From the IMG/VR virus record IMGVR_UViG_3300037493_005562: DNA of 29,576 nucleotides; one strand, given 5' to 3'. A program made the position numbers and the translations under genes. The stretch comes from an uncultured virus (IMG/VR IMGVR_UViG_3300037493_005562) (lineage: Duplodnaviria; Heunggongvirae; Uroviricota; Caudoviricetes). Below, piece by piece: positions 2,910-22,345 of the stretch. The stretch's first letter is position 1; the number at the start of each line of letters is the position of its first letter. The notes below the pieces were generated by a model that was not told the origin of the DNA, ran no database searches, and saw only the letters and a list, made by a program, of their open reading frames with translations.

Positions 2910-3139
2910 GCAGGCGGCTCGGCGACGGATCCCGGGACCAGGACGGCGGTACGTCGGAAGGTGTCGAGCCGCGCCCGCGCGTGCCCGCTGAATCCAGGCA
3001 TGACGTACTCGACTTCCCCGGGGAAGATCCAGGAAGCCCACCAAGGCCATTGTTGGACCACCAGAACCGTCGCGATCCCTTCAACTCCTGGGATCCGAAA
3101 ACGCTGCCCTGGGAGGGTGTCGGGGATCTGGCCGATCAC
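2906..3139 (-). CDS. hypothetical protein (77 aa)
   Basis: GTG start overlaps the TGA of the upstream gene (GTGA coupling); its stop overlaps the helicase stop at CTAG, filling the gap exactly. Confidence 0.55.
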   Translation of the reverse strand: MIGQIPDTLPGQRFRIPGVEGIATVLVVQQWPWWASWIFPGEVEYVMPGFSGHARARLDTFRRTAVLVPGSVAEPPA

Positions 3140-3519: not shown

Positions 3520-4726
3520 AGCTGCTCCTGTGTGTGTCGTAGTCCTCGTCGCCGTCGCGAGCGATCTTCACGTTGAATTTCGCCAAGTTGGCCTCCCACT
3601 GCGCGTCGGTCAGGTACTCGCCGTCGAGCCCGACGTCCGCCTCCATGTCGACGGTCCACTCGTCGTCGGTAACGATACCGTTTTCGATCATCATGTCCGA
3701 AACAGCGTCGTACAGCTCGTCTCGGAACACTCCGGATTCGTCCAGGTAGAATTCATCTTCGATGCTGAACGGGTCGAAGTCGGCGGCGAGAGCCCTGGCC
3801 GCGTCGGTCTGCGTCAGCCCGTATTCCAGAGCGAGGTTGACGCAATCCTCGCGGTCGAGGTCGTCCAGCTCGACCCGGCCCTCGTCGCGTGTGTTCGACA
3901 GCAGGGCCCGTGAAGGTGTACCCTTGAGGTCCTTCTCGTTCGCCGCTGCGAGACGTCGGGCGAGATCCACGTCGGCACCGACCGGGGTGGCCGCGACAAC
4001 CGTCGTCGTCTTGGTTGCGTTCCACGCAACGATCTTGCGCTTCTGGCAGGTGAAGAAGTTCTTTTGCTCTTCGTAAATCTCGCCGCCCTCGATGTAGTAG
4101 AGCGTCCCTTCCACGATGTCGACCTGCGAGGTCACATCACTCTCATCCAGCCCCACCGAGGCGAGAGCGTACCCCAGGTGCGCCTTGTCGGACGAGAAGA
4201 TGACCCCGATCGCGGTACGGTACACGGCAAGTTCGCCGTCGTTCCAGAACCCCAGGTAAATTCTTCCGGGCTCGTTCTGCTTCACGAAGATCAGCGTGCC
4301 GTAGCTTGCGATCTCGCTGAGATCCTTCGCTTCGTCCACATGGGCGACGAGGTGCATCGAGTCTACCGCAAACGTGCGGTCATGCCGCTCGTTCAGCTCG
4401 CGATGGTTCGACAACGTCCCGTTGTGCATTCCGATCGTGTTGCCGATCAGGTAGGGGTGGGCGTTTTCCCTGGTGACGGCTCCCGTGGTTGCCCATCGGG
4501 TGTGCCCCGCCATCATCGCGTATTTCGTCCAGGCCACCGTTTTGGCGAAGAGAATGGATCCCCGTGCCTTGTCGATCTCCCACGGGGAGGTGGCGTCTAC
4601 GGACCCGAACACGCCCCACGACATATCGCCGCGCGAGTCGTTCTGGTGTGCAAGGGCCGTCAACAGGACAGCGCGCTGCACTTGTGTCGCGTCCGCGTTG
4701 AATTGGGCACCGAATACGCCGCACAT
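3512..4726 (-). CDS. class-II (Ntn-hydrolase) glutamine amidotransferase with acidic C-terminal extension
   Basis: Start placed at ATG 4726 (GGAG RBS) gives M-C-G-V-F-G with the catalytic Cys at the N-terminus. Motifs SRG.MSWG, GHTRWATTG, ENAHPY, MHNGTLSN, VDS. Confidence 0.92.
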   Translation of the reverse strand: MCGVFGAQFNADATQVQRAVLLTALAHQNDSRGDMSWGVFGSVDATSPWEIDKARGSILFAKTVAWTKYAMMAGHTRWATTGAVTRENAHPYLIGNTIGMHNGTLSNHRELNERHDRTFAVDSMHLVAHVDEAKDLSEIASYGTLIFVKQNEPGRIYLGFWNDGELAVYRTAIGVIFSSDKAHLGYALASVGLDESDVTSQVDIVEGTLYYIEGGEIYEEQKNFFTCQKRKIVAWNATKTTTVVAATPVGADVDLARRLAAANEKDLKGTPSRALLSNTRDEGRVELDDLDREDCVNLALEYGLTQTDAARALAADFDPFSIEDEFYLDESGVFRDELYDAVSDMMIENGIVTDDEWTVDMEADVGLDGEYLTDAQWEANLAKFNVKIARDGDEDYDTHRSSYE

Positions 4727-4765
4727 GAAGGCTCCGAGAGAACGGGAGAGGGGTGTTTGAGGCAT

Positions 4766-4791
4766 GTAACCGATGTGGTTACTTTAGGCAA
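4766..4791 (-). promoter_or_regulatory. putative promoter/operator (TTGCCT-aaa-GTAACC-acatc-GGTTAC)
   Basis: Perfect GTAACC-N5-GGTTAC inverted repeat at 4766-4782 between the amidoligase stop and the GATase start; matches the copy at 6074-6099. Confidence 0.65.
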
Positions 4792-6037
4792 ACTTCTTGA
4801 CGCGCCACTGGAGCCACTTTCGGGCCGCGTCGGTCGGGGCAAACCCCTTCCAGGCGTCCATCGGTTCCATCGCGAGGACCGCCGCGACGTCGGCGTCGGT
4901 CATGTTCTTGCACCGCTCGACAAGGTTCGCCAGCGTGATGCTCCAGTTGTGGATCTTCACGAAGTCGGTCGTGCCGGAATGCAGCCGGAATTCGACGGTG
5001 CCGTGGACCCACCACGCCTGGATATTCATGGCGTAGTACCGACTGCCAGGAACGTCGTGTTTGTCGCGACGATTCTCAGGTTTGCGGACCGGGGACGCCA
5101 TGTTGCGGTCATGGGTCTTCAAGTCGCTTGCCGCGGGCATCGAATCGTCCCGAATGGCGAGGATCCTCGCCTTCGCTTCGGTGTGCTTGTCCTTAATGGA
5201 CAGGTAGCGTCGCACCTGCTCCGCGAGCGGGCGACAGTAGACGTTGCTTCTGCGATCCTTCGGCACCGTCGCGAACACGGCGGGCTCGATGTGTGCCCAC
5301 ACGAGCAGCAGACGGCGCATTCCGATCCACGTCATGTCCTGAGCGTTGACGTGAACATGCAGGCCACACGAATCGTTGACCGTCGTGTCCGACGTGTTCA
5401 GCGCCGTGCAAAGCTCCCGAAGTTGATTCGTAAACATATGGCCGCTCGCCGGGGCCGTATTCAGCTCGACACCCTCGATCGAGCCGTCCTCGACGACGGC
5501 GATGTCCCATCGGTCGCAAATGACGCTGACGCCGCCGTCGCCGCCGCCGTGCGTCTCGATCTCGCAGGCGATCAAGCGCGTGGTCGGGTTTTCGCCCGTG
5601 GCCCATCCGACATGGGTTTTGCCGTAGGAGTCGCGGTAGTCGATACCACTGTTGGAATTGGAATGACCCGAACAGCAGTCGTAGCAGTTGTCGCAATCCT
5701 CGCACGTACCTTCGACGCGGTTGCCGCAGTCGGAGCAGGTGAGGTGATCGTTGCAACAGCGCACGCAGATGGGTCCATGCGTACAGCTAAGGCAGCGCTC
5801 ACCGCTGTCGCGGGTTTCGGAGCACCCGTCGCAGCCAAAGTGTTCATCGCAGCAGCCCTGACAGTACGTGCAGGTGCCCCGCCGGGGGTCGCAAGCGACG
5901 ACGCCTTCGTCGGCATCGTCGGGGGCGTCGTCGCCCACGGCGTCACCCAAGGGGCACGAACAGCCTTCACACGTTTCGCGGGGATCTTCCCACGACGGAG
6001 TTTCGGGCGTAGGGGTAGGGGGGGTCAGGGGGGCCAT
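4784..6037 (-). CDS. putative amidoligase (Amidoligase_2 / glutamine-synthetase-fold COOH-NH2 ligase) with Cys-rich N-terminus
   Basis: Motifs ACEIE, EDGSI, VELNT, NDSCGLHVHV, SRYYAMN, GTVEFRLHSGT; adjacent class-II GATase is the known gene context. Confidence 0.9.
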   Translation of the reverse strand: MAPLTPPTPTPETPSWEDPRETCEGCSCPLGDAVGDDAPDDADEGVVACDPRRGTCTYCQGCCDEHFGCDGCSETRDSGERCLSCTHGPICVRCCNDHLTCSDCGNRVEGTCEDCDNCYDCCSGHSNSNSGIDYRDSYGKTHVGWATGENPTTRLIACEIETHGGGDGGVSVICDRWDIAVVEDGSIEGVELNTAPASGHMFTNQLRELCTALNTSDTTVNDSCGLHVHVNAQDMTWIGMRRLLLVWAHIEPAVFATVPKDRRSNVYCRPLAEQVRRYLSIKDKHTEAKARILAIRDDSMPAASDLKTHDRNMASPVRKPENRRDKHDVPGSRYYAMNIQAWWVHGTVEFRLHSGTTDFVKIHNWSITLANLVERCKNMTDADVAAVLAMEPMDAWKGFAPTDAARKWLQWRVKKFA

Positions 6038-6070
6038 CGAGACTCTCTTGCGAGGGTTGGTTATACCCTA

Positions 6071-6099
6071 TATGTAACCGATAAGGTTACACCTGTCAA
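6071..6099 (-). promoter_or_regulatory. sigma70-like promoter with an operator-like palindrome in the spacer
   Basis: Minus strand reads TTGACA-17 nt-TACATA; TGTAACC-N5-GGTTACA palindrome at 6073-6091; AT-rich island upstream of the amidoligase. Confidence 0.75.
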
Positions 6100-6189
6100 G
6101 GGGAAACTTCGAGGCAGTCCGCCCTTTGGACAGACGACCCCCCCCCAGGGGGGCCCCCCCCTCGCCTTAAAACCTGTTACCGTACCTGT

Positions 6190-6417
6190 ATGAATCTCGT
6201 ACGCAGGTTGCAGTTTACGATCGGAGCCCCTCTCGGTCCCGAACACGGTGAGACGCTCGTGCTCACGGGAACGCTCGACGGTCTTCTGGAGCTGCGAAAG
6301 GCGATCGATTCCGCCCTAAACGGAAACGGCGAGCCCGGGATCATCACTCGGGAGCGCACAGGAGCCGAAATCTTCGTGCGGCGAATCGACGCGACAACGC
6401 ACTGGAAAACGCTCTAG
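6190..6417 (+). CDS. hypothetical protein (75 aa)
   Basis: ATG ORF divergent from the amidoligase with protein-like composition; weak RBS. Confidence 0.55.
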   Translation: MNLVRRLQFTIGAPLGPEHGETLVLTGTLDGLLELRKAIDSALNGNGEPGIITRERTGAEIFVRRIDATTHWKTL

Positions 6418-6620
6418 CTCGCCCTTGCGAGCGAGCGGCTCGTACCGTCGGTGTCCGAAAGGAGCCCCTGCTGTAGTCGCTGTACGAGAACGGTCACTTT
6501 GTCGGCAGCCACCGAAGCGAGGCGTCGCCGCATCTCCCGGGTGGCGTGTTCTGGAACCGCCAAGGTTATGAATTCTGTGCCCGTTTGCGGAGCGACGCCC
6601 TCGGCTTCGAGGAAAAGCAT
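6414..6620 (-). CDS. hypothetical protein (68 aa)
   Basis: GGAGACACCAC-ATG RBS, similar to that of the upstream gene; stop overlaps the convergent gene at CTAG. Confidence 0.55.
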   Translation of the reverse strand: MLFLEAEGVAPQTGTEFITLAVPEHATREMRRRLASVAADKVTVLVQRLQQGLLSDTDGTSRSLARAS

Positions 6621-6701
6621 GTGGTGTCTCCGAGATGCGGGAATGACTACTTGACAGTATCACGAGAGTAGGAGTTGTCGCTACCGCCCACCCCCGGTGG
6701 T

Positions 6702-7244
6702 TTAAGGTGCGAGTGCTGGCGCGGGAGGGTCAGACGAGATCGTCAAGGGGCTCTGTGGGGGGCTAGCTGGCAGCAGGCGGTTCACGAGATACCCGAAGCC
6801 CAAAAGTTGAAAAAAGCCCATCACGAGTCCGAGCATCAACATCTGAAACGCCTGTGACTCCCAGATCCGCTTTTTCCAGTCTTCGCGAACTTTCCGATCT
6901 TCGCGGTCCTGCTTGACGCGCACCTCGCGCTCCTCTTTTTCTCGCTCCTTGCGTTCGGTTCGGTCCTCTTTCTCGAACGTGAGACGTTCCTCTTCGGTTC
7001 GCGCCATGCGTTCCAACGCTTCTGCGGCACGTCGGGAATTACCTAGCTCTTCCCGGATCTCGGTTGCGAGTTTATCCGTAGATTTCTCGACAGCCCGCTG
7101 GCCCTCTCGGATCCCGACGAGGATGGTTTGTTGGCTCTCTCGCATCGCGATGAGCCCTGAGGTCATTTCTGACATCCAGTTGCTCGTAGCATCGACCGAC
7201 GAGTCTTCCGTTGGAATTTCTGTTCGTGTACGGCTGGTCGGCAT
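6702..7244 (-). CDS. coiled-coil protein with a C-terminal transmembrane helix
   Basis: Start placed at ATG 7244 (GGAGAG RBS); E/R/K-rich helix followed by hydrophobic AFQMLMLGLVMGFFQLLGFGYLV. Confidence 0.75.
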   Translation of the reverse strand: MPTSRTRTEIPTEDSSVDATSNWMSEMTSGLIAMRESQQTILVGIREGQRAVEKSTDKLATEIREELGNSRRAAEALERMARTEEERLTFEKEDRTERKEREKEEREVRVKQDREDRKVREDWKKRIWESQAFQMLMLGLVMGFFQLLGFGYLVNRLLPASPPQSPLTISSDPPAPALAP

Positions 7245-7285
7245 CGGTGGTGTCTCTCCGTGGTTCCCGAGTATATCGAGAAACC

Positions 7286-10039
7286 CTACGTGCCGCGCGG
7301 CCCCAGGAACACATCGGCAGCGATTTTCGGGTACGTGTCCAGTGCTAAGAGAAGTTGATCGACAGACGTACCGGGTGGAAGAAACAGAGAGCCCTGTCCG
7401 GACGTCAGGAAGCCGCGAAACTCGTGATACTCCTGCGCGCGAAGGAGTTTTTGTGCGAAGGCCCACCCTTCGCGCATCGTGTCGACGATCGCTCGGTAGC
7501 GGTCTCGATCGGATTTCACGAGAACGACTTCACTTTCCAGTCGTTGAATCTGCATCGCGTACTTCATGGCAGACTCTTCGACGCGCCGCGTACGCCCTTG
7601 TTTCCGCTCGGCCTCAAGCGCCGCGTCCACGCGCTTCCGATGAACAGGCGAGAGCGTCTCCTTCACGCCGAACGCCTTGAGGAGCTTCACAACCAATTGC
7701 TCGATCGCAGGGAGCAGGTGCGCGGTCGAGAACCCGAGGTCCTCGCGCTGCACGGCCCAGGGCTCGTTGTGTCCTTGTCCCATGAACGGGAGATGGGCGA
7801 CTTCGTGCGATGCAACGCCGTGGAGGTATCCTGCAATGGCCCACGGCTTTTCCTTGAACGCGTCGATCACTTCCTCGAACTTGTCAGGCTGGAGCAATAC
7901 GAAGTTCTTGAACGACCGCGTGCCGATATCGCCGTCCGAGGTGGTGAGTCCTCGTACCGTTGAATCGAGCACGAACCCTGGCTTGAAAGGGATCGTGACC
8001 TTTAGTACACGCCCTGTTTCCTTCTGCGTTCCGAACGACCCTTCGCCTGCGATCATCCGAAGGGTCATGTCCCACAACACGAGCATCGGAATGTACTTCT
8101 TGGCGTTGCGCATGAACTTGCGCGCGGCGTCCTTGTCGTAGGTCTCCGTGTTCACCTTCACGGCCCCCGCTGCACCGAAGGGGTTTACGTCCTCAGCGCG
8201 CTTGCGAGCTTTTGCGACGGTCTCGGGTGTTGCAGCGGGGTGTACTTCGGAGGATGCGACGATCATCCGGTTCAGTTGCGCGAGGATCACGGAGAGGGTG
8301 GTCGTGTCCTGGGCCACGGTTTCACCCGAGGCTGAGCGTGAACCACGTTCACGAGTCACTTGGATCGCGTCGATGAGTCGTCGCGCGTCATCCGGAGTGA
8401 TGGCTTCGCCCCGTTGGAGAGTCGATGCGAGATCCACGGCCCACTCGGCAGGCTCGCCCCCTTCCGCAACGTGGCGCACGACGTCGAGTACAACGGTGCC
8501 GAGCTTCTTTCGGCCTTCTTCGGTTTGCGCTTCTCCCGTTGACCGAGGCATCACACCCGACCAGGATCGGAAATTGTCGTAGGGGTCTGCGGGTCCTTGC
8601 GGCGGCTCTGGGGTTCCGGGGTCGCGCGGAGCAGGTTGGCCCCTCGTGCTGCGCTGCTGTGTCTCAGGTTTCTGCTTCTCGTAGAAGTCCACCATTCCCG
8701 AAGCAAGCTCGTTGAGCGTCGCTACGAAGTCGGGATCTTCTGCGACTTCGCGGAACTGCGACGCGAATTCTGCGGCGCCTTCTCGTTCTCGCTCGTCAGA
8801 CGAGTCGGGGAGGTACGTCGTCCACTGTTTCCGCTGTGCCGCTGACGCTGCCTCGTTCGACACGTTCTTCTTGATCTGCGCGTATGACGCAGCGGAAGGG
8901 CTGTTGGGGTTCCAGTCCTCACGAGAAGCGTTGAGGGGGTACTCACGCTTGGTCGGTTTGTTCGTGGTCTCGACGTCGAGCACGATGTCACTTGGAAGCG
9001 CGACGTTTCCATCGGGACGTTCCGAAAACTGGAACAGACCGTTCAGGCGAATGTAGAGGAGCCCACTTCCGGTTCCGACTCCCCGGCGGTACCCGCGGAT
9101 CTCGGTGGCGTTCCCCTCGCCCCAGGGGATAGGGAACGAGAATTCGAGTTTGGATCCCCGACGTCCTGAGAAGAACGGCGTCACCATGTCGCCATTGAAC
9201 ATCAAGCTCACGTCCGGCGTGTCGCTGTACGCGAGGATGTTCTTCACGCGTGTCTGCGCGTTGAGCCCTGATTCAAACAGATGGCTCCACTCGTCACGAA
9301 TGATCACGTCACGCACGGTGATTTTGGTTCCCCGTCGAGGCTCTACGCCTTCGGTCACCTCGTAGTCGTACGTGCCAGGAATTGTGATGAGGTGCGTGTT
9401 CCGAGTGTGAATCTCTACGTTATCCGTTGTAGACACTCCGAAGATGACCGCTTTCGCCATGCCAAAGCCACCTGCCGACGCGGGAGAGCCGCGTTCCGCG
9501 GGAATTTCCTCGCCCCCTTCTCCGATCCCCGAAGGCTTCGACGTAGCTCCGAGGTTCATGAGCTTCTCTTCGAGAGTCTTGACATCCATGCCGATGCCGT
9601 TGTCCTCGAACACGATCTCGCCGATGTTCCGACCTTCGGCGTTCGTCCCCGTCGTACGAAGCGTAACGGAAAAGTACCCTTCGCCCTTCGGCACGTGGAG
9701 TGCCCCTCGCGAACGGTATGACGCGCGGATAGCGTCGACCGAGTTCTGCATCGCTTCACGTGTGGCGAGGGCAAGCAGATCGCCGCTCTTGTACAGCTTT
9801 TCCGCTGCGATTTTCCATACGGCTGCGACGTCCACGCCTCGCTGCCCCCGCCGCGCAACGGGTGCTGGAACTCCAGACGCGCCGGAGCGTGAGTCCTCGA
9901 TGTTCTCGTACAGGGCCGCGCGCCGCAACGAGTCTCCGACTTCTCGGAGGTACTCACGGGTCTCAGGGGAGCGCGTCACAAGCATCATCCCGTAAACGAG
10001 ATCCGGCGAGACGGTGCGCTGCTTGATACGAGTCACCAT
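7286..10039 (-). CDS. GHKL (HATPase_c/Hsp90-like) ATPase with a C-terminal HExxH zincin-like motif and coiled coil
   Basis: N-box REAMQNSVDA, G1 FEDNGIGMD, G2 GGFGMAK, motif IV GTKITV; SHEVAHLPFMGQGHNEPW near the C-terminus; GGAGAGG RBS. Confidence 0.88.
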   Translation of the reverse strand: MVTRIKQRTVSPDLVYGMMLVTRSPETREYLREVGDSLRRAALYENIEDSRSGASGVPAPVARRGQRGVDVAAVWKIAAEKLYKSGDLLALATREAMQNSVDAIRASYRSRGALHVPKGEGYFSVTLRTTGTNAEGRNIGEIVFEDNGIGMDVKTLEEKLMNLGATSKPSGIGEGGEEIPAERGSPASAGGFGMAKAVIFGVSTTDNVEIHTRNTHLITIPGTYDYEVTEGVEPRRGTKITVRDVIIRDEWSHLFESGLNAQTRVKNILAYSDTPDVSLMFNGDMVTPFFSGRRGSKLEFSFPIPWGEGNATEIRGYRRGVGTGSGLLYIRLNGLFQFSERPDGNVALPSDIVLDVETTNKPTKREYPLNASREDWNPNSPSAASYAQIKKNVSNEAASAAQRKQWTTYLPDSSDEREREGAAEFASQFREVAEDPDFVATLNELASGMVDFYEKQKPETQQRSTRGQPAPRDPGTPEPPQGPADPYDNFRSWSGVMPRSTGEAQTEEGRKKLGTVVLDVVRHVAEGGEPAEWAVDLASTLQRGEAITPDDARRLIDAIQVTRERGSRSASGETVAQDTTTLSVILAQLNRMIVASSEVHPAATPETVAKARKRAEDVNPFGAAGAVKVNTETYDKDAARKFMRNAKKYIPMLVLWDMTLRMIAGEGSFGTQKETGRVLKVTIPFKPGFVLDSTVRGLTTSDGDIGTRSFKNFVLLQPDKFEEVIDAFKEKPWAIAGYLHGVASHEVAHLPFMGQGHNEPWAVQREDLGFSTAHLLPAIEQLVVKLLKAFGVKETLSPVHRKRVDAALEAERKQGRTRRVEESAMKYAMQIQRLESEVVLVKSDRDRYRAIVDTMREGWAFAQKLLRAQEYHEFRGFLTSGQGSLFLPPGTSVDQLLLALDTYPKIAADVFLGPRGT

Positions 10040-10117
10040 TTGGTACGTTCCTCTCCGAGGCAGACCGGGTTATCATGCCACGACACCACGTATCGTACTG
10101 CACCGACGGGAGCCTCT

Positions 10118-11848
10118 GTGGCTGTATCTGACTACGACAAGTTTGCTTCTTGGGTCGCCCGGGGCATGCGGGATCAGACGTTCGCGCAGAACTTCGACGA
10201 TGTTGACTTCGTAGTCATCAACAAGCTTCTGGGCGTCACGACACATCGGAGCTTCGTCGCGGATATCCTGCGCCCCACCCTGAGAGGGGAGGTGGCTCCG
10301 GTGCGTCGAGGGCGTAGCGGTCCGGATCGGTCTACGGACCGGACGGTTCGACCGAACCCCCTCGATAAGATCGAAGGTCGGATTTCTCCGGGCCTCTTGA
10401 AGGCAGTCCAAGAGACTCCGTGGGGCGCCCCCGAGAGCACGAGCGCGGCCGAGATCGTGTGGCGGGATCCTGAAGGTTCAGGGCGTGTTGTACGGATCTT
10501 TCGGGAAGGAGCGCGTTGGCGCGCGGCGGCGGACGGTGTGCGTATCCCCCCGCGTAAGAAGCGTCTCCAGGGGGGAGAACTAGGGACGGAAGACAAGGTG
10601 TCGCCGCTCGACGCCATCAAGCTCGCTATCGAGGCCATGGCTCCCCACCGGACACTCGTACCTGTGGAAATCGTTCCGCCTGCGCCCGACGAGACGCTTC
10701 GTATTTTGATTGTGGGGGCCACGCCGGAAAACTGGACGTATCAAGCCTCCGAGTCCTACCCCGAGAGCGGGCTCATTATCTGGACGCACCTCGACGACCG
10801 GGTCATTCTGCGGGACCTCGGGGTGGAGGCAAAGAAGGGCTCCCTGGAGTCCGTTGAAGGAGAGTCTTCCTGGCGTCTTGATACACCCGGGGGGCAGTTC
10901 CCCGAACGGTGGGACGACATCCTTACGGCGCTCGACGCGGCACGGGTCTTTATGGAGGGCTACCGACCGGCTGCGGTGCCTCCGGCACGCATCGCGTTCA
11001 GCGGTCCTGAGTGGGCGGTGGCGATCGTGGATCACGTACAGGATCTCGGAGTCTCCCGATGGCTTACGGACCTCGGTTTCGAGGGGTACGTTCTCCAGCC
11101 TCCGAGCATGCAGGGTCGCTTGTTGCAGGTCGAGTGGTTGAAAGCCGACCCCGCGGACTCCAACAAGGCACGCGCAGGCTTCATCCTCGAAGCGTCGGAA
11201 CTTTCTCCGGATGGGAAGATCAAGCTCAAGAGGTCGTTTAAGTCATCCCGCGCTCACGTGATGGCACCGCAGATGGCGGTCTCGTCGGCCGACGAGATCG
11301 AGATCGACAAGTTCATTCCAGAAGAATGGGTCATTGACATTGTGCTTCCGCGGGTTCCGGCCACGCACGAACGGCTGGCGGACGGTCGCGAGACCATTGA
11401 GAAAAACGAGGTGGGCGACGAGACGCTCGCGTGGATCTACACCGTCATTGCCCGGGCGATCGAATCGTTGCTTGAAGACACCGTCGAGGCTCTTTGCGCT
11501 CCCGGTGGTGTGGACCGCGCTGTCGCCGCACTCTGTACGGAGGAAGGCAAGATCGCTATCTCGACCTCGCTGGCTGTGGCTAGCTACGGCGGGTCATACC
11601 TCGGAGAGATGGCCGCTAAGAGGTTCAGTCGCGCGTCGGTCACGGACGCCCTGCACGCGCGTCTTTGCTCGCCGGGGGGCCGTCAGATCGTGCAACGTGT
11701 GATCACGTCGGCCTGCTCGATGCCCCGCCCTGAGATTCGGGGGATGCTCTCGGGCGGTTCGGATTCCGCGACGGCGCGCACAGATGTTGATCCTGCGCGG
11801 GCTCGCACCAGCGTAGACTATGCGAGTGCCCGCACGGTTAGGTTCTAG
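10118..11848 (+). CDS. large hypothetical protein (~576 aa)
   Basis: Long ORF; GTG at 10118 follows GGGAG. The ORF-track start at 10040 would abut the divergent gene and overlie its RBS. Confidence 0.8.
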   Translation: MAVSDYDKFASWVARGMRDQTFAQNFDDVDFVVINKLLGVTTHRSFVADILRPTLRGEVAPVRRGRSGPDRSTDRTVRPNPLDKIEGRISPGLLKAVQETPWGAPESTSAAEIVWRDPEGSGRVVRIFREGARWRAAADGVRIPPRKKRLQGGELGTEDKVSPLDAIKLAIEAMAPHRTLVPVEIVPPAPDETLRILIVGATPENWTYQASESYPESGLIIWTHLDDRVILRDLGVEAKKGSLESVEGESSWRLDTPGGQFPERWDDILTALDAARVFMEGYRPAAVPPARIAFSGPEWAVAIVDHVQDLGVSRWLTDLGFEGYVLQPPSMQGRLLQVEWLKADPADSNKARAGFILEASELSPDGKIKLKRSFKSSRAHVMAPQMAVSSADEIEIDKFIPEEWVIDIVLPRVPATHERLADGRETIEKNEVGDETLAWIYTVIARAIESLLEDTVEALCAPGGVDRAVAALCTEEGKIAISTSLAVASYGGSYLGEMAAKRFSRASVTDALHARLCSPGGRQIVQRVITSACSMPRPEIRGMLSGGSDSATARTDVDPARARTSVDYASARTVRF

Positions 11849-11851
11849 CTC

Positions 11852-13090
11852 ATGTCACTCGACGTCGGAGCGTCCATCCCGATCTCAGCGGGGCTCGTGA
11901 TTTGGAAGCGAGATGCTTCGGGTCAGGTCTCCCTGCTTCTCGTGCATCCTACGAACGCGAAGTGGCAGGGCACGTACTCGATCCCGAAGGGGCACTTGGA
12001 TCCCGAAGAGCTAGTTGCGGAGAAGCGCAGCTTCTTGACAGGCGCGCTTCCTGCGGCGCTTCGAGAGACATCCGAAGAAATTGGATGGGATTTTCAGCCA
12101 AACGAGGTCACCTTCGGCGGGATCCTCGAAAACGTAAAGGGCGGGGTGGTCAAGAAGCTCGTTTACTTCTTCTTCGCGGACGGTAGTGCGTTGCCGAACG
12201 TGCTTCCCAAAGGCGGCCTCCAGCTTGATGAGGTTGATTGGGCGGGGTTCGTGCCTGTGTCCGACGCGCCCTCGAAGATGACGAGCTACCTCGCTCCGAT
12301 CGTGGGGTACCTGCTGAAATATTTGGAAGCTCGACAGGCGCCCACTGTCGCGCGTACAACCCTTCCACGCACGCACCCTGAGCCTACGACGGTTCGTGAG
12401 TGGCTCGAACGCGGAGCGAGCGACCGAGGGTTCGCGTCGCGCTTCTCGTCCGTTGATTTTCCGAAGTCGCGGCGCGCGGCACACGAGCACCCCGATGTTC
12501 TTCGGGATCTTGGGGTCTCGATTTATCCCGAGGGGATCGTGTACTCGTCCCTCGCCTCGGGTACGGACACGTACTTCACCCATCGATGGGACCTGCCTGA
12601 TGGCTCTACCGTAGGCATCTATCCCTGGACGTGGTTCGGCAGCTCTGCGGATGGCTACTACCTTCCGCCGGGATCCTTTACGGTCGCGATGTGGTTCGAT
12701 CGCGCAAGGGCTTCAGACCCTGACGAGATTGAACAATTCGCGCAGTGGAAAGGTCTAGGTGAGGGCGACGCGCTCATGTACGCGTACAGGAAGTACGGCG
12801 TGGCAATCCCCGGGATGGAAGCGACCCCCGGCGAAGACGTGGTTGCCCAACGGTCGATCGGGGATGAGCCGGACGACGGAGACGAACCCGAATTTGAGCC
12901 CGAGCCGGAACCCGTCCCCGTTTCAGCGAGCGGCAAGACCGTTGACTTCCAGGGCGTGCAGGTGCTCGGCAGCAAGGGACGCCCGAAGGTGTTCCGCAGC
13001 GAGCAGGACGCAGATGACGAGGCCGACATGCTCGGGAGGCGCTGGCGCGTGTACGAGTTCTCGGGTCGGTACTACGTTGGCCGCGCGTAG
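11852..13090 (+). CDS. Nudix hydrolase domain fused to an unknown C-terminal region
   Basis: ISAGLVIW..LLLVH..YSIPKGHLDPEE...AALRETSEEIG..EVDWAGF; starts 3 nt after the previous stop. Confidence 0.85.
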   Translation: MSLDVGASIPISAGLVIWKRDASGQVSLLLVHPTNAKWQGTYSIPKGHLDPEELVAEKRSFLTGALPAALRETSEEIGWDFQPNEVTFGGILENVKGGVVKKLVYFFFADGSALPNVLPKGGLQLDEVDWAGFVPVSDAPSKMTSYLAPIVGYLLKYLEARQAPTVARTTLPRTHPEPTTVREWLERGASDRGFASRFSSVDFPKSRRAAHEHPDVLRDLGVSIYPEGIVYSSLASGTDTYFTHRWDLPDGSTVGIYPWTWFGSSADGYYLPPGSFTVAMWFDRARASDPDEIEQFAQWKGLGEGDALMYAYRKYGVAIPGMEATPGEDVVAQRSIGDEPDDGDEPEFEPEPEPVPVSASGKTVDFQGVQVLGSKGRPKVFRSEQDADDEADMLGRRWRVYEFSGRYYVGRA

Positions 13091-13092
13091 AA

Positions 13093-14592
13093 ATGGGCGA
13101 CGTCGTCCGACTCACCGTGGATCTTCAAGCCTGGACGTTGTTGCCGCCCGAAGTGTCGGGCGCTGCTCGAACCGTCAGGCAGAAGACGAACGAGTACGGG
13201 ACTGTCGAGGTCGTCGTAGAAGCAGACTTGGAGGCGTTCGCCGCGCTCCTGAGCTGGCTGAACGAGAACGTCGAGCGGCTCGTTCCTGGACGGATCGGAG
13301 ACAGCACCCCCCCGCACCCGCTCCGTTGGCAGTTGTTCGATGTGCGTGAAAAGATCGACCGCGCCGTCACGCGGCTGACAAAGGCCGCTGCACAGGCAGC
13401 TCGTGAGCCCGGTGTTCTGGACGAGACAGAAAAGGAGACGCTGCGCAAGGTGCTGAAAGGCACCACGACGGGCATGACTCAGCGCAAGATCGACAACGCG
13501 GCCAAGACGATTGGGTTCTCTCCGGCTCCGACGGTAGGTCGTTTTGGGCAAGTGGTCGATCCTGGTGTGAAGATGGACGACTACGGACGCCCCCTCGGGC
13601 CCAACAACCGTTTCCGTCTCGCCGCGGCGAGGGCGCTCGGCGTTGAACTGCCCGAGGTTCAAGCCGAACGTGAGGCTTGGGAGACCGAGAACGGCTTCCG
13701 TGCTCCGAAGGTCGACCCGAAGCAGTGGGACCGGCGCACGTGCGCGGCCTGTTGGGGCGCCTACGCGATGTTGCCGCGTGGCGGGGGGCTCACCCATCAC
13801 GGGTACACGCGCCCCGGGTGGGGGCACATCGTCGGGGATTGTGCCGGGGTTCGGACAGAGCCTTGGGAAGTCTCGCCGAATGTTGCGCGGGCGACCCTTC
13901 GCGGCCAGGAAGATCGGGCAGCGCGTCTTCGAGAGATCGATGAAGGCAGGGTCAAGATCACGAAGGCTCCGGCACCTGCAACCAAGATCGAGATTTTTCG
14001 AACCCACGATTACTTCAAGACGCGTATCGTCGCGAACGCCGCGCGTGAGGCCAAGACGCGCGGACCTATCCAAATTTGGTGGAACACCGAGCAGGAGGTT
14101 TGGGGGTTGATGAGCGCCGTAGATCAGCCTTTGCGATGGGACGTCTTCGGGGTTGTCCCCTCGGACGGAAAATTCCTACCCGGCGTGAAGTACGATGCTG
14201 CGTTTCTGAACGACGACGTGCGCGACGGTAAAATCCTGGTCGGGCCCGGAGACTCGCGCTGGGAGAAGGCTCTTCGTAACGCACTGGACGACGTTCACCG
14301 TACGCTCAGGTACCTGTGGCGTCCCGGCTTCGGGAGCGTTCCCTGGCTCCGGGCTGCGATCCGCTTGTGGAAGCCGTCCGAAACCGGACCCGTGGGTGCT
14401 CCGAACCTCAATTACCCCGAGGACTACGCACACAGCGACTTCGAGGGTCGTTCGAGGATCGACGGCACGTTCGACTGGTGGATCACGAGCGAACACGCGG
14501 ACGAGGTACTCGGAGCCGAAGTGGACACCGCTCGAAGCACCGTGACCTCACACCCCGCCGCCCTGCACGAGATTCTGGTTCCGGGGGAGTAG
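13093..14592 (+). CDS. hypothetical phage protein with a CxxC...HHGY.RPG...C putative Zn-binding motif
   Basis: 499-aa ORF; TCAACWG...LTHHGYTRPGWGHIVGDCAG. Confidence 0.8.
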   Translation: MGDVVRLTVDLQAWTLLPPEVSGAARTVRQKTNEYGTVEVVVEADLEAFAALLSWLNENVERLVPGRIGDSTPPHPLRWQLFDVREKIDRAVTRLTKAAAQAAREPGVLDETEKETLRKVLKGTTTGMTQRKIDNAAKTIGFSPAPTVGRFGQVVDPGVKMDDYGRPLGPNNRFRLAAARALGVELPEVQAEREAWETENGFRAPKVDPKQWDRRTCAACWGAYAMLPRGGGLTHHGYTRPGWGHIVGDCAGVRTEPWEVSPNVARATLRGQEDRAARLREIDEGRVKITKAPAPATKIEIFRTHDYFKTRIVANAAREAKTRGPIQIWWNTEQEVWGLMSAVDQPLRWDVFGVVPSDGKFLPGVKYDAAFLNDDVRDGKILVGPGDSRWEKALRNALDDVHRTLRYLWRPGFGSVPWLRAAIRLWKPSETGPVGAPNLNYPEDYAHSDFEGRSRIDGTFDWWITSEHADEVLGAEVDTARSTVTSHPAALHEILVPGE

Positions 14593-14636
14593 CGGTTCGT
14601 GGCCGGACTGGTTACGTAGCCAGCCTGGAGTCCGAG

Positions 14637-14867
14637 ATGGGCGTTGAAACACAGGCTGACCGACTTCATCGCGACGCGGCGAACAACCTTGAGAAGTGTC
14701 TTCCTTTTTTGAAGAACGCACTGGACGCGCTTGACGAGATGCAGGAGCCCGATTGCTGGGGCTACGACGAGTACACCGACGCGTTTCGGGCAACCATCGA
14801 GGAGTCTCAGGAAGATTTGTTCTTGATCCGGAAAAAGCTTCGGTCCATCATCTCGGCCCTGGATTAG
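14637..14867 (+). CDS. hypothetical helical protein (76 aa)
   Basis: GGAG RBS before ATG 14637; amphipathic helical pattern. Confidence 0.65.
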   Translation: MGVETQADRLHRDAANNLEKCLPFLKNALDALDEMQEPDCWGYDEYTDAFRATIEESQEDLFLIRKKLRSIISALD

Positions 14868-14870
14868 CCC

Positions 14871-15143
14871 TTGAAACCTGAAACATGGGACCTCCTTGCG
14901 AAGGCACTCGTGGCGTACCAGAACACGGACGCCGCGGTGATCAAGAAGATCGACATCCTGAAAGACCCGAGTGGCGGTCTGGACCCGACACTCGGAGTGA
15001 TTGCGATGTCGGAAATCGCATTTGCGGGCGGGAATCTCGCGGACACTCTCCGCACCGTGCTCTTGATGGATCGACCCGAAGGTAGGGGCGTACTGGCCGC
15101 CGCCGATCACGTGGACCTCGAACCCGACGAGCTGAAGCTTTGA
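14871..15143 (+). CDS. hypothetical protein (90 aa)
   Basis: Fills the operon gap; overlaps the next ORF. Confidence 0.6.
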   Translation: MKPETWDLLAKALVAYQNTDAAVIKKIDILKDPSGGLDPTLGVIAMSEIAFAGGNLADTLRTVLLMDRPEGRGVLAAADHVDLEPDELKL

Positions 15144-15361
15144 GCGAGGTCGACATGACAGATCCCGACCCCATGGACCCGCCCGAGGACTCGCTTCGGT
15201 TGTACCGCATCGCGGTGTTTGCCTACCGCGACGCCTTCAAGGCTGGAAAGGTTACGTCGGCCGAACGCGTGGCGATGGGCAAGGCGTACAGAGCGCTATC
15301 TCGGGAGGATCAGCTCAAAGCGGATGCGTTCTGGGAACAGGCGCAGAAGGAATGGCCTTGA
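15140..15361 (+). CDS. hypothetical protein (~70 aa; start may be ATG 15155)
   Basis: Coupled ORF; GAGG precedes the second Met. Confidence 0.6.
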   Translation: MSEVDMTDPDPMDPPEDSLRLYRIAVFAYRDAFKAGKVTSAERVAMGKAYRALSREDQLKADAFWEQAQKEWP

Positions 15362-15624
15362 TCTACTGCACGAACTGTCACGGCAGCTTCTTCCGCCCCT
15401 GTCCCAAGTGCCACCCGGACCTTTCGGACTTTGTCTGCGACCGCTGCGGCCAGTCTTCCTGGGCGGAAGGACGAGGCCCGCCGACATCCTGGCGAAACGT
15501 CTTCACCTCAGCGCTCGGTGCGGTCTTCGGAGGTTGCCTTGCAGGTCCTCCAGGCGCGCTGGTCGGCGGACTCCTTGGTTTTTTCGCCGGATCTGCGCCT
15601 GGGTTTTTTCGAGGACAGAAATGA
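15352..15624 (+). CDS. small Zn-ribbon protein with a glycine-zipper membrane segment
   Basis: Three CxxC pairs (CTNC, CPKC, CDRC) then GAVFGGCLAGPPGALVGGLLGFFAG; AAGGA RBS. Confidence 0.7.
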   Translation: MALIYCTNCHGSFFRPCPKCHPDLSDFVCDRCGQSSWAEGRGPPTSWRNVFTSALGAVFGGCLAGPPGALVGGLLGFFAGSAPGFFRGQK

Positions 15625-15655
15625 GAATCCACACACCAGAACCCGTCAAAGGCCG
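15622..15655 (+). repeat. 34-bp direct repeat, copy 1 (truncated 5' end of the phosphoesterase gene, MRIHTPEPVKGRS*)
   Basis: tgagaatccacacaccagaacccgtcaaaggccg; 32/34 identical to 16342-16375. Confidence 0.95.
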
Positions 15656-15711
15656 ATCCTGAATGAGATCGACGACGTCTGGAACTATGACTGAGATACC
15701 GAGGAGCGCCT

Positions 15712-16344
15712 TTGCCCGTCCGCACCGTTTTCCGCCCCGTCGTGAAGGTCGAACCCGAGGTCGTCGCGTTGCAGTGCAACGTCTGTGGCGAGGAGGGCTT
15801 GAAGACAGGCATGTCCTGGCCGGAGGATATGCACGTCTTCGAGGTGGCAGGTGGTTACGCCGATAGTTTCCCGTCCGACCTGGAGACGCTCACGTTCGTC
15901 GTTCACGGGAAGTGTCTCAAAGCGTGGGCGGACACGTTCAAGGTACCTGTGGACTCTCGGCATTCAATGAGCCCAAGGTCTGTCCCAGCCACGCACAGCG
16001 AGACCGGAAAGGCTGTCATCTTTGAGTATGGCTGGCTACGTGACGCTGAGCAGCCGTTCGTGTTCTCGGAAGTAGCAAATCCCTACGACTTTCCGGGCAG
16101 CGACTCTCTTCCGCCCGTTGGCATCTACAAGCACTTCAAAGGACTCCTGTACGAAGTGCTGGACCACGGCTGGGACGTGAACGCACCGCATGACGCTTAC
16201 GTGATCTACCGGGCACTTTACGGTGAGTCGAAAGTGTGGGCCCGACCGGCACGTATGTGGGTGGAAGATATACGGAGCGTAGAGGATAAAACGACGTACC
16301 CTGAAGATGCTCCTCGGCCCCGGTTCGTGAGGTACGCGCCGTGA
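15712..16344 (+). CDS. DUF1653-like domain protein with an N-terminal Cys/His metal-binding region
   Basis: GIYKHFKG..YEVL...VIYRALYGE..VWARP..MW.E...PRF; N-terminal CNVC...HGKC; GAGGAG RBS before TTG. Confidence 0.8.
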   Translation: MPVRTVFRPVVKVEPEVVALQCNVCGEEGLKTGMSWPEDMHVFEVAGGYADSFPSDLETLTFVVHGKCLKAWADTFKVPVDSRHSMSPRSVPATHSETGKAVIFEYGWLRDAEQPFVFSEVANPYDFPGSDSLPPVGIYKHFKGLLYEVLDHGWDVNAPHDAYVIYRALYGESKVWARPARMWVEDIRSVEDKTTYPEDAPRPRFVRYAP

Positions 16345-17093
16345 GAATCCACACACCGGAACCCGTCAAAGGTCGCACGATCTGCATCGGGGATCTGCAC
16401 GGCTGTTACGACGAAGCCGTCGCTCTGCTCGACAAGCTCGCGGTCACGAACGACGACCGCGTGATTTTCGTGGGGGATCTCGTGGACCGGGGACCGAAGC
16501 CTCGCGAGTGTGTCGATCTCGTTCGTGAGAACGGATACCTGTGTGTGTTGGGCAACCATGAAGAACGCACGTTGCAACAACGCCACTCGCCCGACGAGAA
16601 GCTGAAGCCTACGCACCTTTACACGCGGCGTGCGTTGGAAGGGCACCACTACCGCTGGTTCGAGACGCTGCCTTTGGCAATCGTCCTACCCGAGTACAAC
16701 GCGATCGTCGTTCACGCGGGCATGTACCCGAACATCCCCCTTCAAGGGCAGCAGAATCGACACCTGCTCCACATCCAGCACATCAACCCAGGCAACGACC
16801 CCCTGAACACGAAGAAGAGCTACTGGCCCTCGAAGGCGCCCCCCGAGTGCTCGTTCTGGACTAACTTCTGGACCGGCCCCGAACGTGTGATTTTCGGGCA
16901 CACCGTGACGGACCGCCCACTCGTGACCGAGTTCGCCGTCGGCATCGATACCGGAGCGTGTTTCGGCGGGAACCTCACCGCGGTCGTTCTTCCAAGTTGG
17001 GAGATCGTTTCGGTTCCAGGGACGGATCACTCGAACGGTCGAAAGACGGAAGCGAAGTACGTCGTTCACGGGGATGTGAGGACGTACTCGTGA
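16341..17093 (+). CDS. calcineurin-like metallophosphoesterase (PPP family; PrpE/ApaH/phage Ser-Thr phosphatase-like)
   Basis: GDLHG, GDLVDRGP, LGNHE, VHAG, FGHT, IDTGA motifs. Confidence 0.93.
   Translation: MRIHTPEPVKGRTICIGDLHGCYDEAVALLDKLAVTNDDRVIFVGDLVDRGPKPRECVDLVRENGYLCVLGNHEERTLQQRHSPDEKLKPTHLYTRRALEGHHYRWFETLPLAIVLPEYNAIVVHAGMYPNIPLQGQQNRHLLHIQHINPGNDPLNTKKSYWPSKAPPECSFWTNFWTGPERVIFGHTVTDRPLVTEFAVGIDTGACFGGNLTAVVLPSWEIVSVPGTDHSNGRKTEAKYVVHGDVRTYS
16342..16375 (+). repeat. 34-bp direct repeat, copy 2 (5' end of the intact phosphoesterase gene)
   Basis: tgagaatccacacaccggaacccgtcaaaggtcg; exactly 720 bp after copy 1. Confidence 0.95.
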
Positions 17094-17704
17094 TCGATCC
17101 TGAAGGCGTTTTCGGTCCGCATTACGATGTCGTACTGATGGACCCCCCGTGGATGATGTGGGGGGATCCGAATAAGAACGCCGCGGCGGGCAAGTTCTAC
17201 GACCTCATGTCTGAAGAAGACCTTGCTGCTCTTCCGGTTCGTTCTCTTCTGCGGGATCCCAAACACGGCGCGTTCTTTATCTGGGCGACCTGCCCGCGTC
17301 TCGATCTCGCGCTACGCACAATCGCTGCTTGGAAGTTGAATTACCGCGGGGTAGCCTTCAATTGGGTGAAAACCCGAAAAGACGGCAAGGTCATCGGCGC
17401 GCAGGGAATTCCGCCTACGGGAACGAAACCCACGTCAGAGCTTTGCCTGTTAGCGACCGTTCAAAAGGTCGGGCGTCCGTTCAAGCTCTTGGACGCGGGT
17501 GTGCCTCAAGTCGTGCTCGCACCGCGCGGAGGCCACTCGGAGAAGCCGCCCGAGGTTCGCGACCGAATCGTACGTCTCTATGGAGACAGACCACGCATCG
17601 AATTGTTCGCGCGTGCTAGGGTTTCGGGTTGGAACGCCTGGGGGCAGGAGGCCCCCCCTCCCGAAACCTTTATCCTTGACAACGTGCCCGGTTCGGTTAC
17701 ATAG
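17090..17704 (+). CDS. MT-A70 family N6-adenine methyltransferase
   Basis: YDVVLMDPPW, FIWAT, FNWVK, HSEKP, RIELFAR, GWNAWG; GTG start coupled to the phosphoesterase TGA. Confidence 0.92.
   Translation: MIDPEGVFGPHYDVVLMDPPWMMWGDPNKNAAAGKFYDLMSEEDLAALPVRSLLRDPKHGAFFIWATCPRLDLALRTIAAWKLNYRGVAFNWVKTRKDGKVIGAQGIPPTGTKPTSELCLLATVQKVGRPFKLLDAGVPQVVLAPRGGHSEKPPEVRDRIVRLYGDRPRIELFARARVSGWNAWGQEAPPPETFILDNVPGSVT
17676..17703 (+). promoter_or_regulatory. sigma70-like promoter with a degenerate operator, upstream of the subtilase
   Basis: TTGACA-ac-GTGCCC-ggttc-GGTTAC-ATA; same architecture as 6071-6099. Confidence 0.65.
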
Positions 17705-17759: not shown

Positions 17760-19733
17760 ATGCGCCGTACCTTGCGTACTGCCTTCACGTTGATCGCCCT
17801 ACTCGTGCTGTACAGCGCGGTTCGGTCGTACTTCTCTTCCGTCGAGTCGTCGGGGGCAGATACCCCTCTTCGGGCCAAGGGTTCGGGGCCGGGTACCCTC
17901 GTCGTGAACCTCGTGGACTCCGACTGGCGCTGGACCGACGCCGATCTGCGTCACATCGAAGACGTGACCGGCGCCGACTTCGCGTGGTCGAGCCCCGACA
18001 GCGTTGACGACGGCATCATCGTAGGGCAGGTCTCTGACCTCGAATACGCGATGGGCCTTCTCCAAAACGACCCGCTTGTCGAGACCGTCGAGCCCCAGGC
18101 GTTGTACGCCATCCCCGAAGGCGACGAATTCCTCGGAACCGGCGGCACGTTCCCGTTCGACGTGAGCCCGGTCGACACGCTCGCCAAGCCGGGAAAGCAC
18201 GAGAAGTGCTTCGACCTCATTACCGGGGTCTCCATCTGCATCCCCTGGTGGAATCCAGGCGGCGACGACTCCGCGAGCTTCGCGTTCCCCGGTGACGCGC
18301 CCAACGACCCGTTGTATGCGAAGCAGTGGCACATGAAGGCGATGGGCGCTCCGGCCGGGTGGAAGGATTCGCCTCGGGGCAAGGGCATCGTCGTCGCCGT
18401 GATCGACACGGGTGTCGCAAAGGTGGAAGACCTTGGGGGTACGAAGCTCCTCGCAGGCAAGTCGTTCGTTCCCGGTACCAAGGACGCGACGGACGACAAC
18501 GGGCATGGCACACACTGCGCCGGAACCATCGCGCAGACCACGAACAACGGCGTGGGCTTGACCGGCGTGGCTCCTGAAGCGTCGATCCTCCCTATCAAGG
18601 TGTTGTCCGGTGGCGGCTCGGGGCAGTCCGATTGGATCGCTTCCGGCATCGACTGGGCGACCGACAACGGGGCCGACGTGATCAGCATGTCCCTCGGCGG
18701 AGGCTACTCAGCGGTCATCGACGACGCGGTGAAGAAGGCTCGCGCCAAGGGCGTGATCGTCGTCGCGGCGACCGGCAACAGCGGACGTGAAGGGGTCTCG
18801 TATCCGGGGGCTCTCAAGGAAGCGATCGGCGTGTCTGCGACGGGTCCGACCGGCGCGATGGCTCCCTACTCCTCGTGGGGCAAGGGTACCGACATCGCGG
18901 CCCCGGGCGGGGACAAGACGCAGCCCGGTGGTGGTGTGTGGCAGGACACGATCGACGGCAAGGGCGGGCACGTCTACGCTGAGTACCAGGGCACGTCGAT
19001 GGCGACCCCCCACGTGGCAGGCGCAGCGGCGATCCTCCTCTCGACGGGCATGGAGCCGTCTGCGGTCGAACAGGCGCTCTACTCGTCAGGCAAGGGCTCC
19101 GCATGGGATCCCAAGTTTGGGTGGGGCAAGCTCGACCTCGCGACCGCTTTGCAGTACACGGGAGGTGGCGGCGGCCGTACGTGGTTCACGGGCCCCCGTG
19201 TCCTGGCCGGGTTCACGGCGATCTCGACGGGCCTCGTGACGCGGGAAGCGCCTTCGCGCTTCATGACCGTGGCAGTCCTTACGGCGCTGTTCGTGGTCGT
19301 CGGGTTCCTGCCTCTCGCGTACGTCCCATCGTTCGTGTGGTTGCTCGTACCCTACATCGGTCCGGTCCTCGCGATTGGGGCGCAGATCCTCGCGGCACCG
19401 TTGATCCACTGGCCCGACGTGTTCAACCCGTTCAGCGAGTGGATCCGATTCGGAGGCTTCCCCCTCTGGCTCTCGGCCATCCTTCCGGCGCTCGTGTCGT
19501 TCACGCTCGGCGCGTCCAAGCGCACCCGGTCGATCGCCACGGGCCTCGTCGCGGGTTTCGGCGCGAACCTGCTCTACGGGGCCATGTCGGGGACTTTGAA
19601 CCCCTGGTTCCTCGGAGAGTCGTACGGCGCGCTCTGGCTCTCAGGCAACGCCGTCGCGTGCCTCCTGCTGGCCCTGGCCCTCGTCGGCACCGACAAGCTG
19701 GAGCGCGAGCACGGTTCAGTCGAGGAGGGGTAA
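17760..19733 (+). CDS. S8 (subtilisin-like) serine peptidase with N-terminal signal/anchor, prodomain and C-terminal multi-pass membrane domain
   Basis: Triad VIDTG / HGTHCAG / GTSMATPHVAG; oxyanion AATGN; CAGGAG RBS before ATG 17760; several hydrophobic C-terminal helices. Confidence 0.95.
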   Translation: MRRTLRTAFTLIALLVLYSAVRSYFSSVESSGADTPLRAKGSGPGTLVVNLVDSDWRWTDADLRHIEDVTGADFAWSSPDSVDDGIIVGQVSDLEYAMGLLQNDPLVETVEPQALYAIPEGDEFLGTGGTFPFDVSPVDTLAKPGKHEKCFDLITGVSICIPWWNPGGDDSASFAFPGDAPNDPLYAKQWHMKAMGAPAGWKDSPRGKGIVVAVIDTGVAKVEDLGGTKLLAGKSFVPGTKDATDDNGHGTHCAGTIAQTTNNGVGLTGVAPEASILPIKVLSGGGSGQSDWIASGIDWATDNGADVISMSLGGGYSAVIDDAVKKARAKGVIVVAATGNSGREGVSYPGALKEAIGVSATGPTGAMAPYSSWGKGTDIAAPGGDKTQPGGGVWQDTIDGKGGHVYAEYQGTSMATPHVAGAAAILLSTGMEPSAVEQALYSSGKGSAWDPKFGWGKLDLATALQYTGGGGGRTWFTGPRVLAGFTAISTGLVTREAPSRFMTVAVLTALFVVVGFLPLAYVPSFVWLLVPYIGPVLAIGAQILAAPLIHWPDVFNPFSEWIRFGGFPLWLSAILPALVSFTLGASKRTRSIATGLVAGFGANLLYGAMSGTLNPWFLGESYGALWLSGNAVACLLLALALVGTDKLEREHGSVEEG

Positions 19734-22344: not shown

Positions 22345-22345
22345 G

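Follow-up and report, generated by a model that had tools for sequence, protein, structure and literature searches.

The window analysed here is the whole 29,576-nt stretch (29.6 kb) of IMG/VR record IMGVR_UViG_3300037493_005562, from an uncultured virus of the Caudoviricetes, and it carries three short elements in which a palindrome is set into a promoter-like sequence. All three lie on the coding strand, 30-60 nt ahead of the genes for an amidoligase, a glutamine amidotransferase (GATase) and an S8 protease, and the strings that an earlier note on this DNA had read as one shared architecture are present exactly as it wrote them. Site 1, a predicted promoter-operator on the minus strand (6071-6099), reads TTGACA-ggt-GTAACC-ttatc-GGTTAC-ATA, with the -35 TTGACA at 6099-6094, the palindrome GTAACC-ttatc-GGTTAC at 6090-6074 and the -10 TACATA at 6076-6071; its predicted transcription start, near position 6064, is 27 nt 5' of the amidoligase ATG at 6037. 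Site 2, a predicted internal promoter-operator on the same strand (4763-4791), reads TTGCCT-aaa-GTAACC-acatc-GGTTAC-ATG and consists of a -35-like TTGCCT (4791-4786), the palindrome GTAACC-acatc-GGTTAC (4782-4766) and a -10-like TACATG (4768-4763). It falls within the 57-nt gap between the amidoligase and GATase genes, its -35-like hexamer overlapping the amidoligase stop codon (4786-4784), and transcription is predicted to begin near 4756, 30 nt 5' of the GATase ATG at 4726. Site 3, the predicted promoter-operator of the protease, is on the plus strand (17676-17703) and reads TTGACA-ac-GTGCCC-ggttc-GGTTAC-ATA; the -35 TTGACA occupies 17676-17681, the imperfect palindrome GTGCCC-ggttc-GGTTAC 17684-17700 and the -10 TACATA 17698-17703, and the predicted start, near 17710, is 50 nt 5' of the protease ATG at 17760.

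The geometry of the sites is nearly constant. The left palindrome arm begins 2-3 nt after the -35 at all three, the right arm provides the first three bases of the -10, and the -35/-10 spacers measure 17, 17 and 16 bp at sites 1, 2 and 3. The repeat is therefore a 6-5-6 inverted repeat that sits between the -35 and the -10 and overlaps the latter, with half-site centres 11 bp apart, approximately one helical turn, as expected of helix-turn-helix (HTH) dimers. The -35 hexamers match TTGACA at 6/6, 4/6 and 6/6 positions, and the -10 hexamers (TACATA, TACATG and TACATA) contain the TA, with a final base other than T. A stricter promoter-consensus scanner called none of the three sites, because of that last -10 base. 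A scan of the window for TTGACA-N2/3-GTAACC-N5-GGTTACATA, which specifies 21 positions, gave no mismatch for site 1 (0/21), two for site 3, both of them in its left arm, and three for site 2. Alternative readings of the same DNA scored worse: sites 1 and 2 read with a shift of one base (spacer-2) had five mismatches each and the opposite strand of site 2 had four, and no other match with fewer than seven mismatches was found in the window. Near-identical contigs come from four sediment runs, with no listed difference within the three sites, and the comparison is uninformative.

The palindrome is well above background in this DNA. Perfect copies of GTAACC-N5-GGTTAC occur twice (4766-4782 and 6074-6090), against a mean of 0.002 in 1000 dinucleotide-preserving shuffles of the window, and copies with up to two mismatches occur five times, against a shuffle mean of 0.63 and with one shuffle in 1000 reaching five. 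At up to three mismatches 13 copies were observed, where the scanner's own control expected 7.2. The hexamer GGTTAC alone is not enriched in the window; enrichment is confined to the palindromic arrangement. There are only three sites, one of them imperfect, and the motif was picked after inspection of the sequence, both of which would favour chance resemblance; however, none of the 1000 shuffles reached two perfect copies and the motif recurs independently in other records, so that chance is effectively refuted. A possible weak fourth site, GTGGCC-ggact-GGTTAC followed by GTA (14599-14615, plus strand; seven mismatches to the full consensus), lies 7 nt past the stop codon of the open reading frame (ORF) at 13093-14592 and 21 nt before a 76-aa ORF (14637-14867) that has a GGAG ribosome-binding site. 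No TTGACA-like -35 precedes it, and its status is uncertain, because palindromes with two mismatches are expected about 0.6 times by chance.

The same promoter-operator design recurs elsewhere, most often in front of regulator genes. The pattern TTGACA-N1-5-GTAACC-N5-GGTTAC was found at 13 viral loci of 35-66% GC, nine of which precede operons encoding HTH regulators: seven higB (PF05015)-higA (HTH_3) modules, where the ATG comes 9 nt past the palindrome, one RelE-XRE module and one cro-like locus, whose downstream XRE gene encodes 68 aa. The remaining loci comprise a site of viral record G003 before a Ros/MucR gene, one before an 86-aa ORF of no recognised kind and two that are apparently unrelated. 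The -10 was left unconstrained in this set, and in 7/9 of the regulator-linked promoters it is TACnnT. The stricter, 29-bp window-type design ending in ATA was found at 40 exact metagenome loci (37-63% GC), with a HigB signature directly downstream in 34 and one more ending at a contig edge; three precede genes for Rrf2 regulators and two precede other genes. The Rrf2 loci (L177, L196 and L206; 58-63% GC) have the identical TTGACA-N3-GTAACC-N5-GGTTACATA promoter, and unrelated regulator families thus share one operator design. One metagenome higBA promoter (L169) agrees with site 1 at 28/29 bases. In the viral and metagenome higBA sets, higB usually begins 5-15 nt past the motif (range 5-43 nt), and in the virus records that have a copy before higBA the palindrome is single in 7/7. 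Other palindromes are found in higBA modules from known plasmids, the Rts1 type among them, and HigA of Pseudomonas aeruginosa binds a TTAAC-GTTAA palindrome (PMC6987408); GTAACC-N5-GGTTAC therefore appears to be one specificity class among several HigBA types. All 26 of 26 distinct HigA proteins of the GTAACC class have [ST]-R-[KQ] as the signature of the recognition helix, and this was rejected as a diagnostic feature since it is also found in the HigA of L210, which has another operator.

A second setting in which the palindrome recurs is that of phages and prophages with CI-like repressors. A scan of IMG/VR for the palindrome yielded four multi-copy records of 62-63% GC (perfect copies: seven in G004, six in G003, four in G001 and one in G005), while the reversed control pattern gave none. 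Of the 20 perfect copies that these records and the window contain together, crude gene calling places 18 in intergenic DNA, though about 90% of the sequence is coding. The four records have few proteins in common, and protein clustering left three families present in all four; the one that was scanned against a family library is a CI-like repressor of about 200 aa (HTH_3; two of the four also gave a Peptidase_S24 match), whose gene is flanked by palindromes, and the other two are proteins of about 380 and 500 aa. Relatives of this repressor in the genome collection are those of three Mesorhizobium prophages, which also have sites beside the gene. In the three whole Mesorhizobium genomes (6.2-7.5 Mb) all 15 perfect palindromes lie in a single 27-46 kb stretch on the contig of the repressor, with none outside the prophage stretch and none for the reversed control. 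Because of this confinement, GTAACC-N5-GGTTAC belongs to phages, and its explanation as a host regulon was rejected.

A further record, the 15-kb fragment G015 (64% GC), has four copies, two of them between divergent cro-like and cI-like genes, and its cI-like protein is homologous to the repressors of the Mesorhizobium phages. The other two precede a downstream gene: one, GTAACC-ttatc-GGTTAC, matches site 1 in full, spacer included, and the other follows TTGACG-N4, supplies a TACAAC -10 and, like the sites of the window, is succeeded by a leader with a ribosome-binding site. Overall, a cI-like gene adjoins sites in 8/8 of the multi-site prophage or phage records examined. The genes behind the sites of G003 and G004 are of accessory or early type (ParB-like, DUF4942/methyltransferase-like, DAM-like/GNAT-phage, DUF2786/DUF7168 and proteins without assignment). 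A G004 protein beside a site, taken for an amidoligase from a weak phrog_2443 match, proved to be the DAM-like/GNAT-phage protein and is unrelated to the window enzyme. Besides G015, a scan of viral contigs for tandem operators returned coding repeats, an iteron-like array and one promoter-like pair, with no window-like or CI-like protein among them.

Taken together, these results suggest that the three sites are probably copies of an ordinary promoter with a built-in palindromic repressor site, a design familiar from toxin-antitoxin operons and prophage immunity switches. We consider it reasonably likely that they function as repressor operators; the best candidate for the bound protein is a CI/Cro-type XRE repressor, whose gene would lie outside the window. 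Each site would act as a sigma-70-type promoter (-35 TTGACA or TTGCCT, a spacer of 16-17 bp, -10 TACATA or TACATG), and a dimeric HTH repressor would bind the 6-5-6 repeat in the spacer and at the edge of the -10, excluding RNA polymerase while bound. One phage repressor could in this way co-repress two accessory operons, the first comprising the amidoligase, the GATase and two further ORFs and carrying another operator ahead of the GATase, and the second comprising the S8 protease and the ORFs downstream of it. Site 3, with its degenerate left arm, and site 2, with its weak -35, would be the weaker members. Since the window has three such promoters and none of them fronts a regulator gene, it resembles the multi-site prophage case.

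The lambdoid CI/Cro operators of the Mesorhizobium prophages, G001, G003, G004, G005 and G015 are like the window sites in that a palindromic operator, the same GTAACC-N5-GGTTAC, overlaps the core promoter. They are operators of an XRE HTH dimer, phage-specific and present in several copies per genome, all intergenic within the limits of the crude calls given above, which include the window. Unlike in those switches, the window sites are single rather than tandem and precede enzyme genes rather than cI or cro, and the window has no visible repressor gene and almost no proteins in common with these phages. The autoregulated higBA modules, which pair a HigB-like toxin with a HigA XRE antitoxin, share the identical 29-bp design TTGACA-N3-GTAACC-N5-GGTTAC-ATA; in contrast to them, the window has three copies instead of one per virus record, no toxin or antitoxin gene after its sites, and leaders of 27-50 nt, longer than the usual distance from the motif to higB. 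The repressor gp71 of mycobacteriophage L5 is a parallel in that one phage repressor has many sites scattered across the genome; the L5 sites, 13-mers that lack symmetry, often fall within transcription units, whereas those of the window are symmetric and lie in promoters. HigA of P. aeruginosa, as described for mvfR and pel (PMC6987408), is an XRE antitoxin repressor that uses one palindrome at its own and at other promoters, but it differs from the window in the TTAAC-GTTAA sequence, in its chromosomal targets and in having two dimers per site.

The earlier note had taken the 6-5-6 repeat for the site of a dimeric HTH regulator, which is supported in kind by the genes for such regulators that the same design fronts elsewhere, and had held the regulator not to be visible in the window, with which our searches agree. 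No HTH family was found among 43 window ORFs with Pfam or among 37 with PHROGs, HigA and HigB profiles against the six-frame translation of the window gave nothing better than E=2, and inspection of the small window ORFs by eye showed no HTH. About 19 of these small ORFs match no family, and the window has neither divergent cI/cro genes nor tandem operators. With no HTH in the window and the same design before HTH-regulator genes elsewhere, a regulator encoded outside the window is the natural reading, and the missing gene is predicted to be of the XRE type, with the same palindrome at its own promoter.

Several observations weigh against this interpretation. The 29.6 kb analysed contain no detectable gene for an HTH regulator, the -10 hexamers end in A or G instead of the usual T, the -35 of site 2 is weak (4/6), and two of the six positions in the left arm of site 3 are mismatched. 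The window is also almost unrelated to the CI-linked phages, with three weak matches among 31 ORFs, so the link to a CI-like repressor is by motif only and would follow from motif identity and co-occurrence in other phages rather than from homology to the window. In addition, the palindrome occurs in unrelated settings, namely coding repeats and the iteron-like array, and it fronts Rrf2 genes and higBA operons, so the family of the regulator is not fixed.

That last point gives room to an antitoxin. If the regulator were the HigA-type antitoxin of a higBA module, located elsewhere on the phage or in the host, each of the three promoters would be a copied higBA promoter-operator that fires upon antitoxin depletion. 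The proximity of design matches to higB-higA, 5-43 nt upstream of it at 34/40 metagenome and 7/13 viral loci, favours this possibility, as do the near-identity of the L169 promoter to site 1 and the precedent of P. aeruginosa HigA repressing other promoters, mvfR and pel (PMC6987408). We nevertheless regard a HigA-type regulator as unlikely, since the palindrome was single in all seven virus records whose copy precedes higBA and multi-site use was seen only with CI-like repressors. The window encodes no HigA or HigB in a six-frame profile search, binding of HigA to the GTAACC palindrome is deduced from position only, and other HigA subfamilies use other palindromes. A bolder version would be that the phage copied a higBA promoter-operator onto its accessory operons, where a host or phage HigA-type antitoxin holds them off, and that loss of the antitoxin switches the cassettes on as a sensing or counter-defence programme. 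Antitoxin loss is the trigger of toxin-antitoxin-based abortive defence, but we would treat this version as a long shot.

Regulation by another dimeric winged-helix or HTH protein, for example of the Rrf2 family, or by some small DNA-binding protein of the window that escaped recognition, is very unlikely. Three of the 40 metagenome matches do precede Rrf2 genes and the small window ORFs without a family leave candidates, yet Rrf2 contexts are a small minority and neither Pfam, PHROGs nor inspection by eye revealed an HTH in the window ORFs. It is also conceivable that no protein binds and that the repeat is an element intrinsic to the promoter or forms a hairpin in RNA or DNA, for instance as an attenuator, a processing site or a hairpin-type promoter. 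The perfect copies can fold as stems of 6-8 bp (-9.7 and -7.2 kcal/mol; z-scores -2.2 and -1.8), and read-through from site 1 would transcribe site 2. However, site 3 does not fold (-3.8 kcal/mol, worse than shuffles), the -35 is only 2-3 nt upstream, so that the repeat precedes the predicted start, and there is no T-run after the repeat, no terminator call at the sites and no Rfam match. The left arm, moreover, is conserved at HTH-encoding loci across the whole GC range of the viral (35-66%) and metagenome (37-63%) sets, even though sigma-70 does not use it for recognition. We consider a protein-free explanation highly improbable. A hairpin-type promoter of a phage polymerase was set aside because the sites have -35/-10-like hexamers and elsewhere track HTH genes.

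The repressor-operator reading provides a testable wiring diagram for two accessory operons of a sediment phage that is otherwise difficult to relate to anything. No match to phage records was found by blastn with 6.7 kb of the window, tblastn with the amidoligase found only distant amidoligases (25-32% identity), and tblastn with a 917-aa window protein found nothing. Searches for related loci revealed no relative either in viral contigs, with the amidoligase, the S8 protease and the 917-aa protein, or in metagenome contigs, with a 953-aa helicase-like protein. Likewise, no description of GTAACC-N5-GGTTAC came up in searches of the literature on the half-sites with operators, HigA, antitoxins and palindromes, and Mesorhizobium phage repressors, bioinformatic supplements excluded. 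No new regulatory principle is revealed here, but one 29-bp promoter-operator design is common to prophage immunity systems, higBA modules and Rrf2 regulators whose GC contents differ widely, and the motif offers a handy marker for repressor-controlled cassettes in metagenomic phage contigs.

Gene units were delimited by gene calling based on GC content at third codon positions (GC3) together with family scans. The first gene of operon 1 (4784-6037, minus strand) encodes a 417-aa Amidoligase_2 protein (Pfam PF12224, E 1.9e-22; phrog_2443), and the second (3512-4726, minus strand) a class-II, N-terminal-Cys glutamine amidotransferase of 404 aa from MCGVFG, recognised by Pfam GATase_6 and by PHROG profiles. 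The longest GATase ORF begins at an ATG abutting the palindrome (4724-4765 region), and family profiles align only from residue 14; MCGVFG contains the N-terminal Cys nucleophile of class-II amidotransferases and has a GGAG ribosome-binding site ahead. The true start is thus most likely the methionine of MCGVFG (ATG 4726-4724) and not the ATG after GGTTAC, which is what places site 2 in the gap that follows the amidoligase stop codon. Pairs of amidoligase and GATase are reported in several phage genomes. Operon 1 ends with two small ORFs of 127 and 77 aa (2906-3519, minus strand; GC3-based calls), neither with a Pfam or PHROG match.

Operon 2 starts with a 657-aa S8 subtilase (17760-19733, plus strand; Pfam PF00082, E 5e-53), the start codon of which has an AGGAG ribosome-binding site. 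The protein has an N-terminal signal or anchor, a subtilase domain at residues 207-456 and several hydrophobic segments in the C-terminal 200 or so residues, and it is probably membrane-embedded. It is followed by about seven or more co-directional small ORFs (19734-22380, plus strand), including DUF5818 and DUF2059 proteins, which are the probable remainder of the operon. The earlier note had proposed co-control of three genes; the shared sites stand, but the units behind them are operons and not single genes. Its further suggestion, a programme of host-envelope remodelling or superinfection exclusion, gained no support from these results.

Homopolymer blocks 5' of sites 1 and 3 may mark the boundaries of these units. 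The first, C9-A-G6-C8 on the plus strand (6138-6161), is 39 nt 5' of the -35 of site 1 and could be a boundary or a terminator-like hairpin. The second, a hairpin GGGGGC-aggag-GCCCCC followed by CCTTTATCC (17640-17658, plus strand; -19.7 kcal/mol), is 17 nt 5' of the -35 of site 3 and is a possible terminator of the upstream operon. The folding energy of neither block is better than that of shuffles, and with their long G and C runs (G5...C7 in the second) the blocks could also be slippage-prone tracts.

Some minor features of the sites and of their counterparts were also observed. The opposite strand of site 2 (4757-4785, plus) reads TTGAGG-cat-GTAACC-gatgt-GGT-TACTTT, a -35/-10-like pair with a TAnnnT -10, which, if active, would drive antisense transcription into the amidoligase gene. 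A third half-site-like sequence, ATAACC, lies 9 nt 3' of the site 1 palindrome (window 6058-6079), and several palindromes of G001, G003 and G004 have a third GGTTAC about 15-16 nt to their 3' side. In the CI-like repressors of these three records (L136:15985-16581, L144:9117-9716 and L142:9769-10365 in alignment A1) the Ser of the S24 G-D-S-M motif is missing, while that of G005 retains it; judging from this residue, they may not be self-cleaving and may need an antirepressor for induction. A viral contig of 33% GC (L213:5361-5634) contains at least seven GTAACC-N5-GGTTAC units spaced by about 23-57 bp, an array more suggestive of iterons or a partition site than of promoters.

Other observations concern the coding content of the window. 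The N-terminal third of the amidoligase (about 125 aa), outside the Amidoligase_2 domain, is Cys-rich, with Cys pairs of the CxxC type. A 349-aa plus-strand ORF (2864-3913) with coding-like GC3 overlaps the minus-strand GATase gene and the two small ORFs; only one of the two sets can be real, and the minus-strand set was kept. The first 2909 nt of the window are occupied by a 5'-truncated ORF of more than 950 aa, a gene that continues past the window start, and this ORF matches the central part of phage helicase/methyltransferase (DarB-like) protein families whose members are very large.

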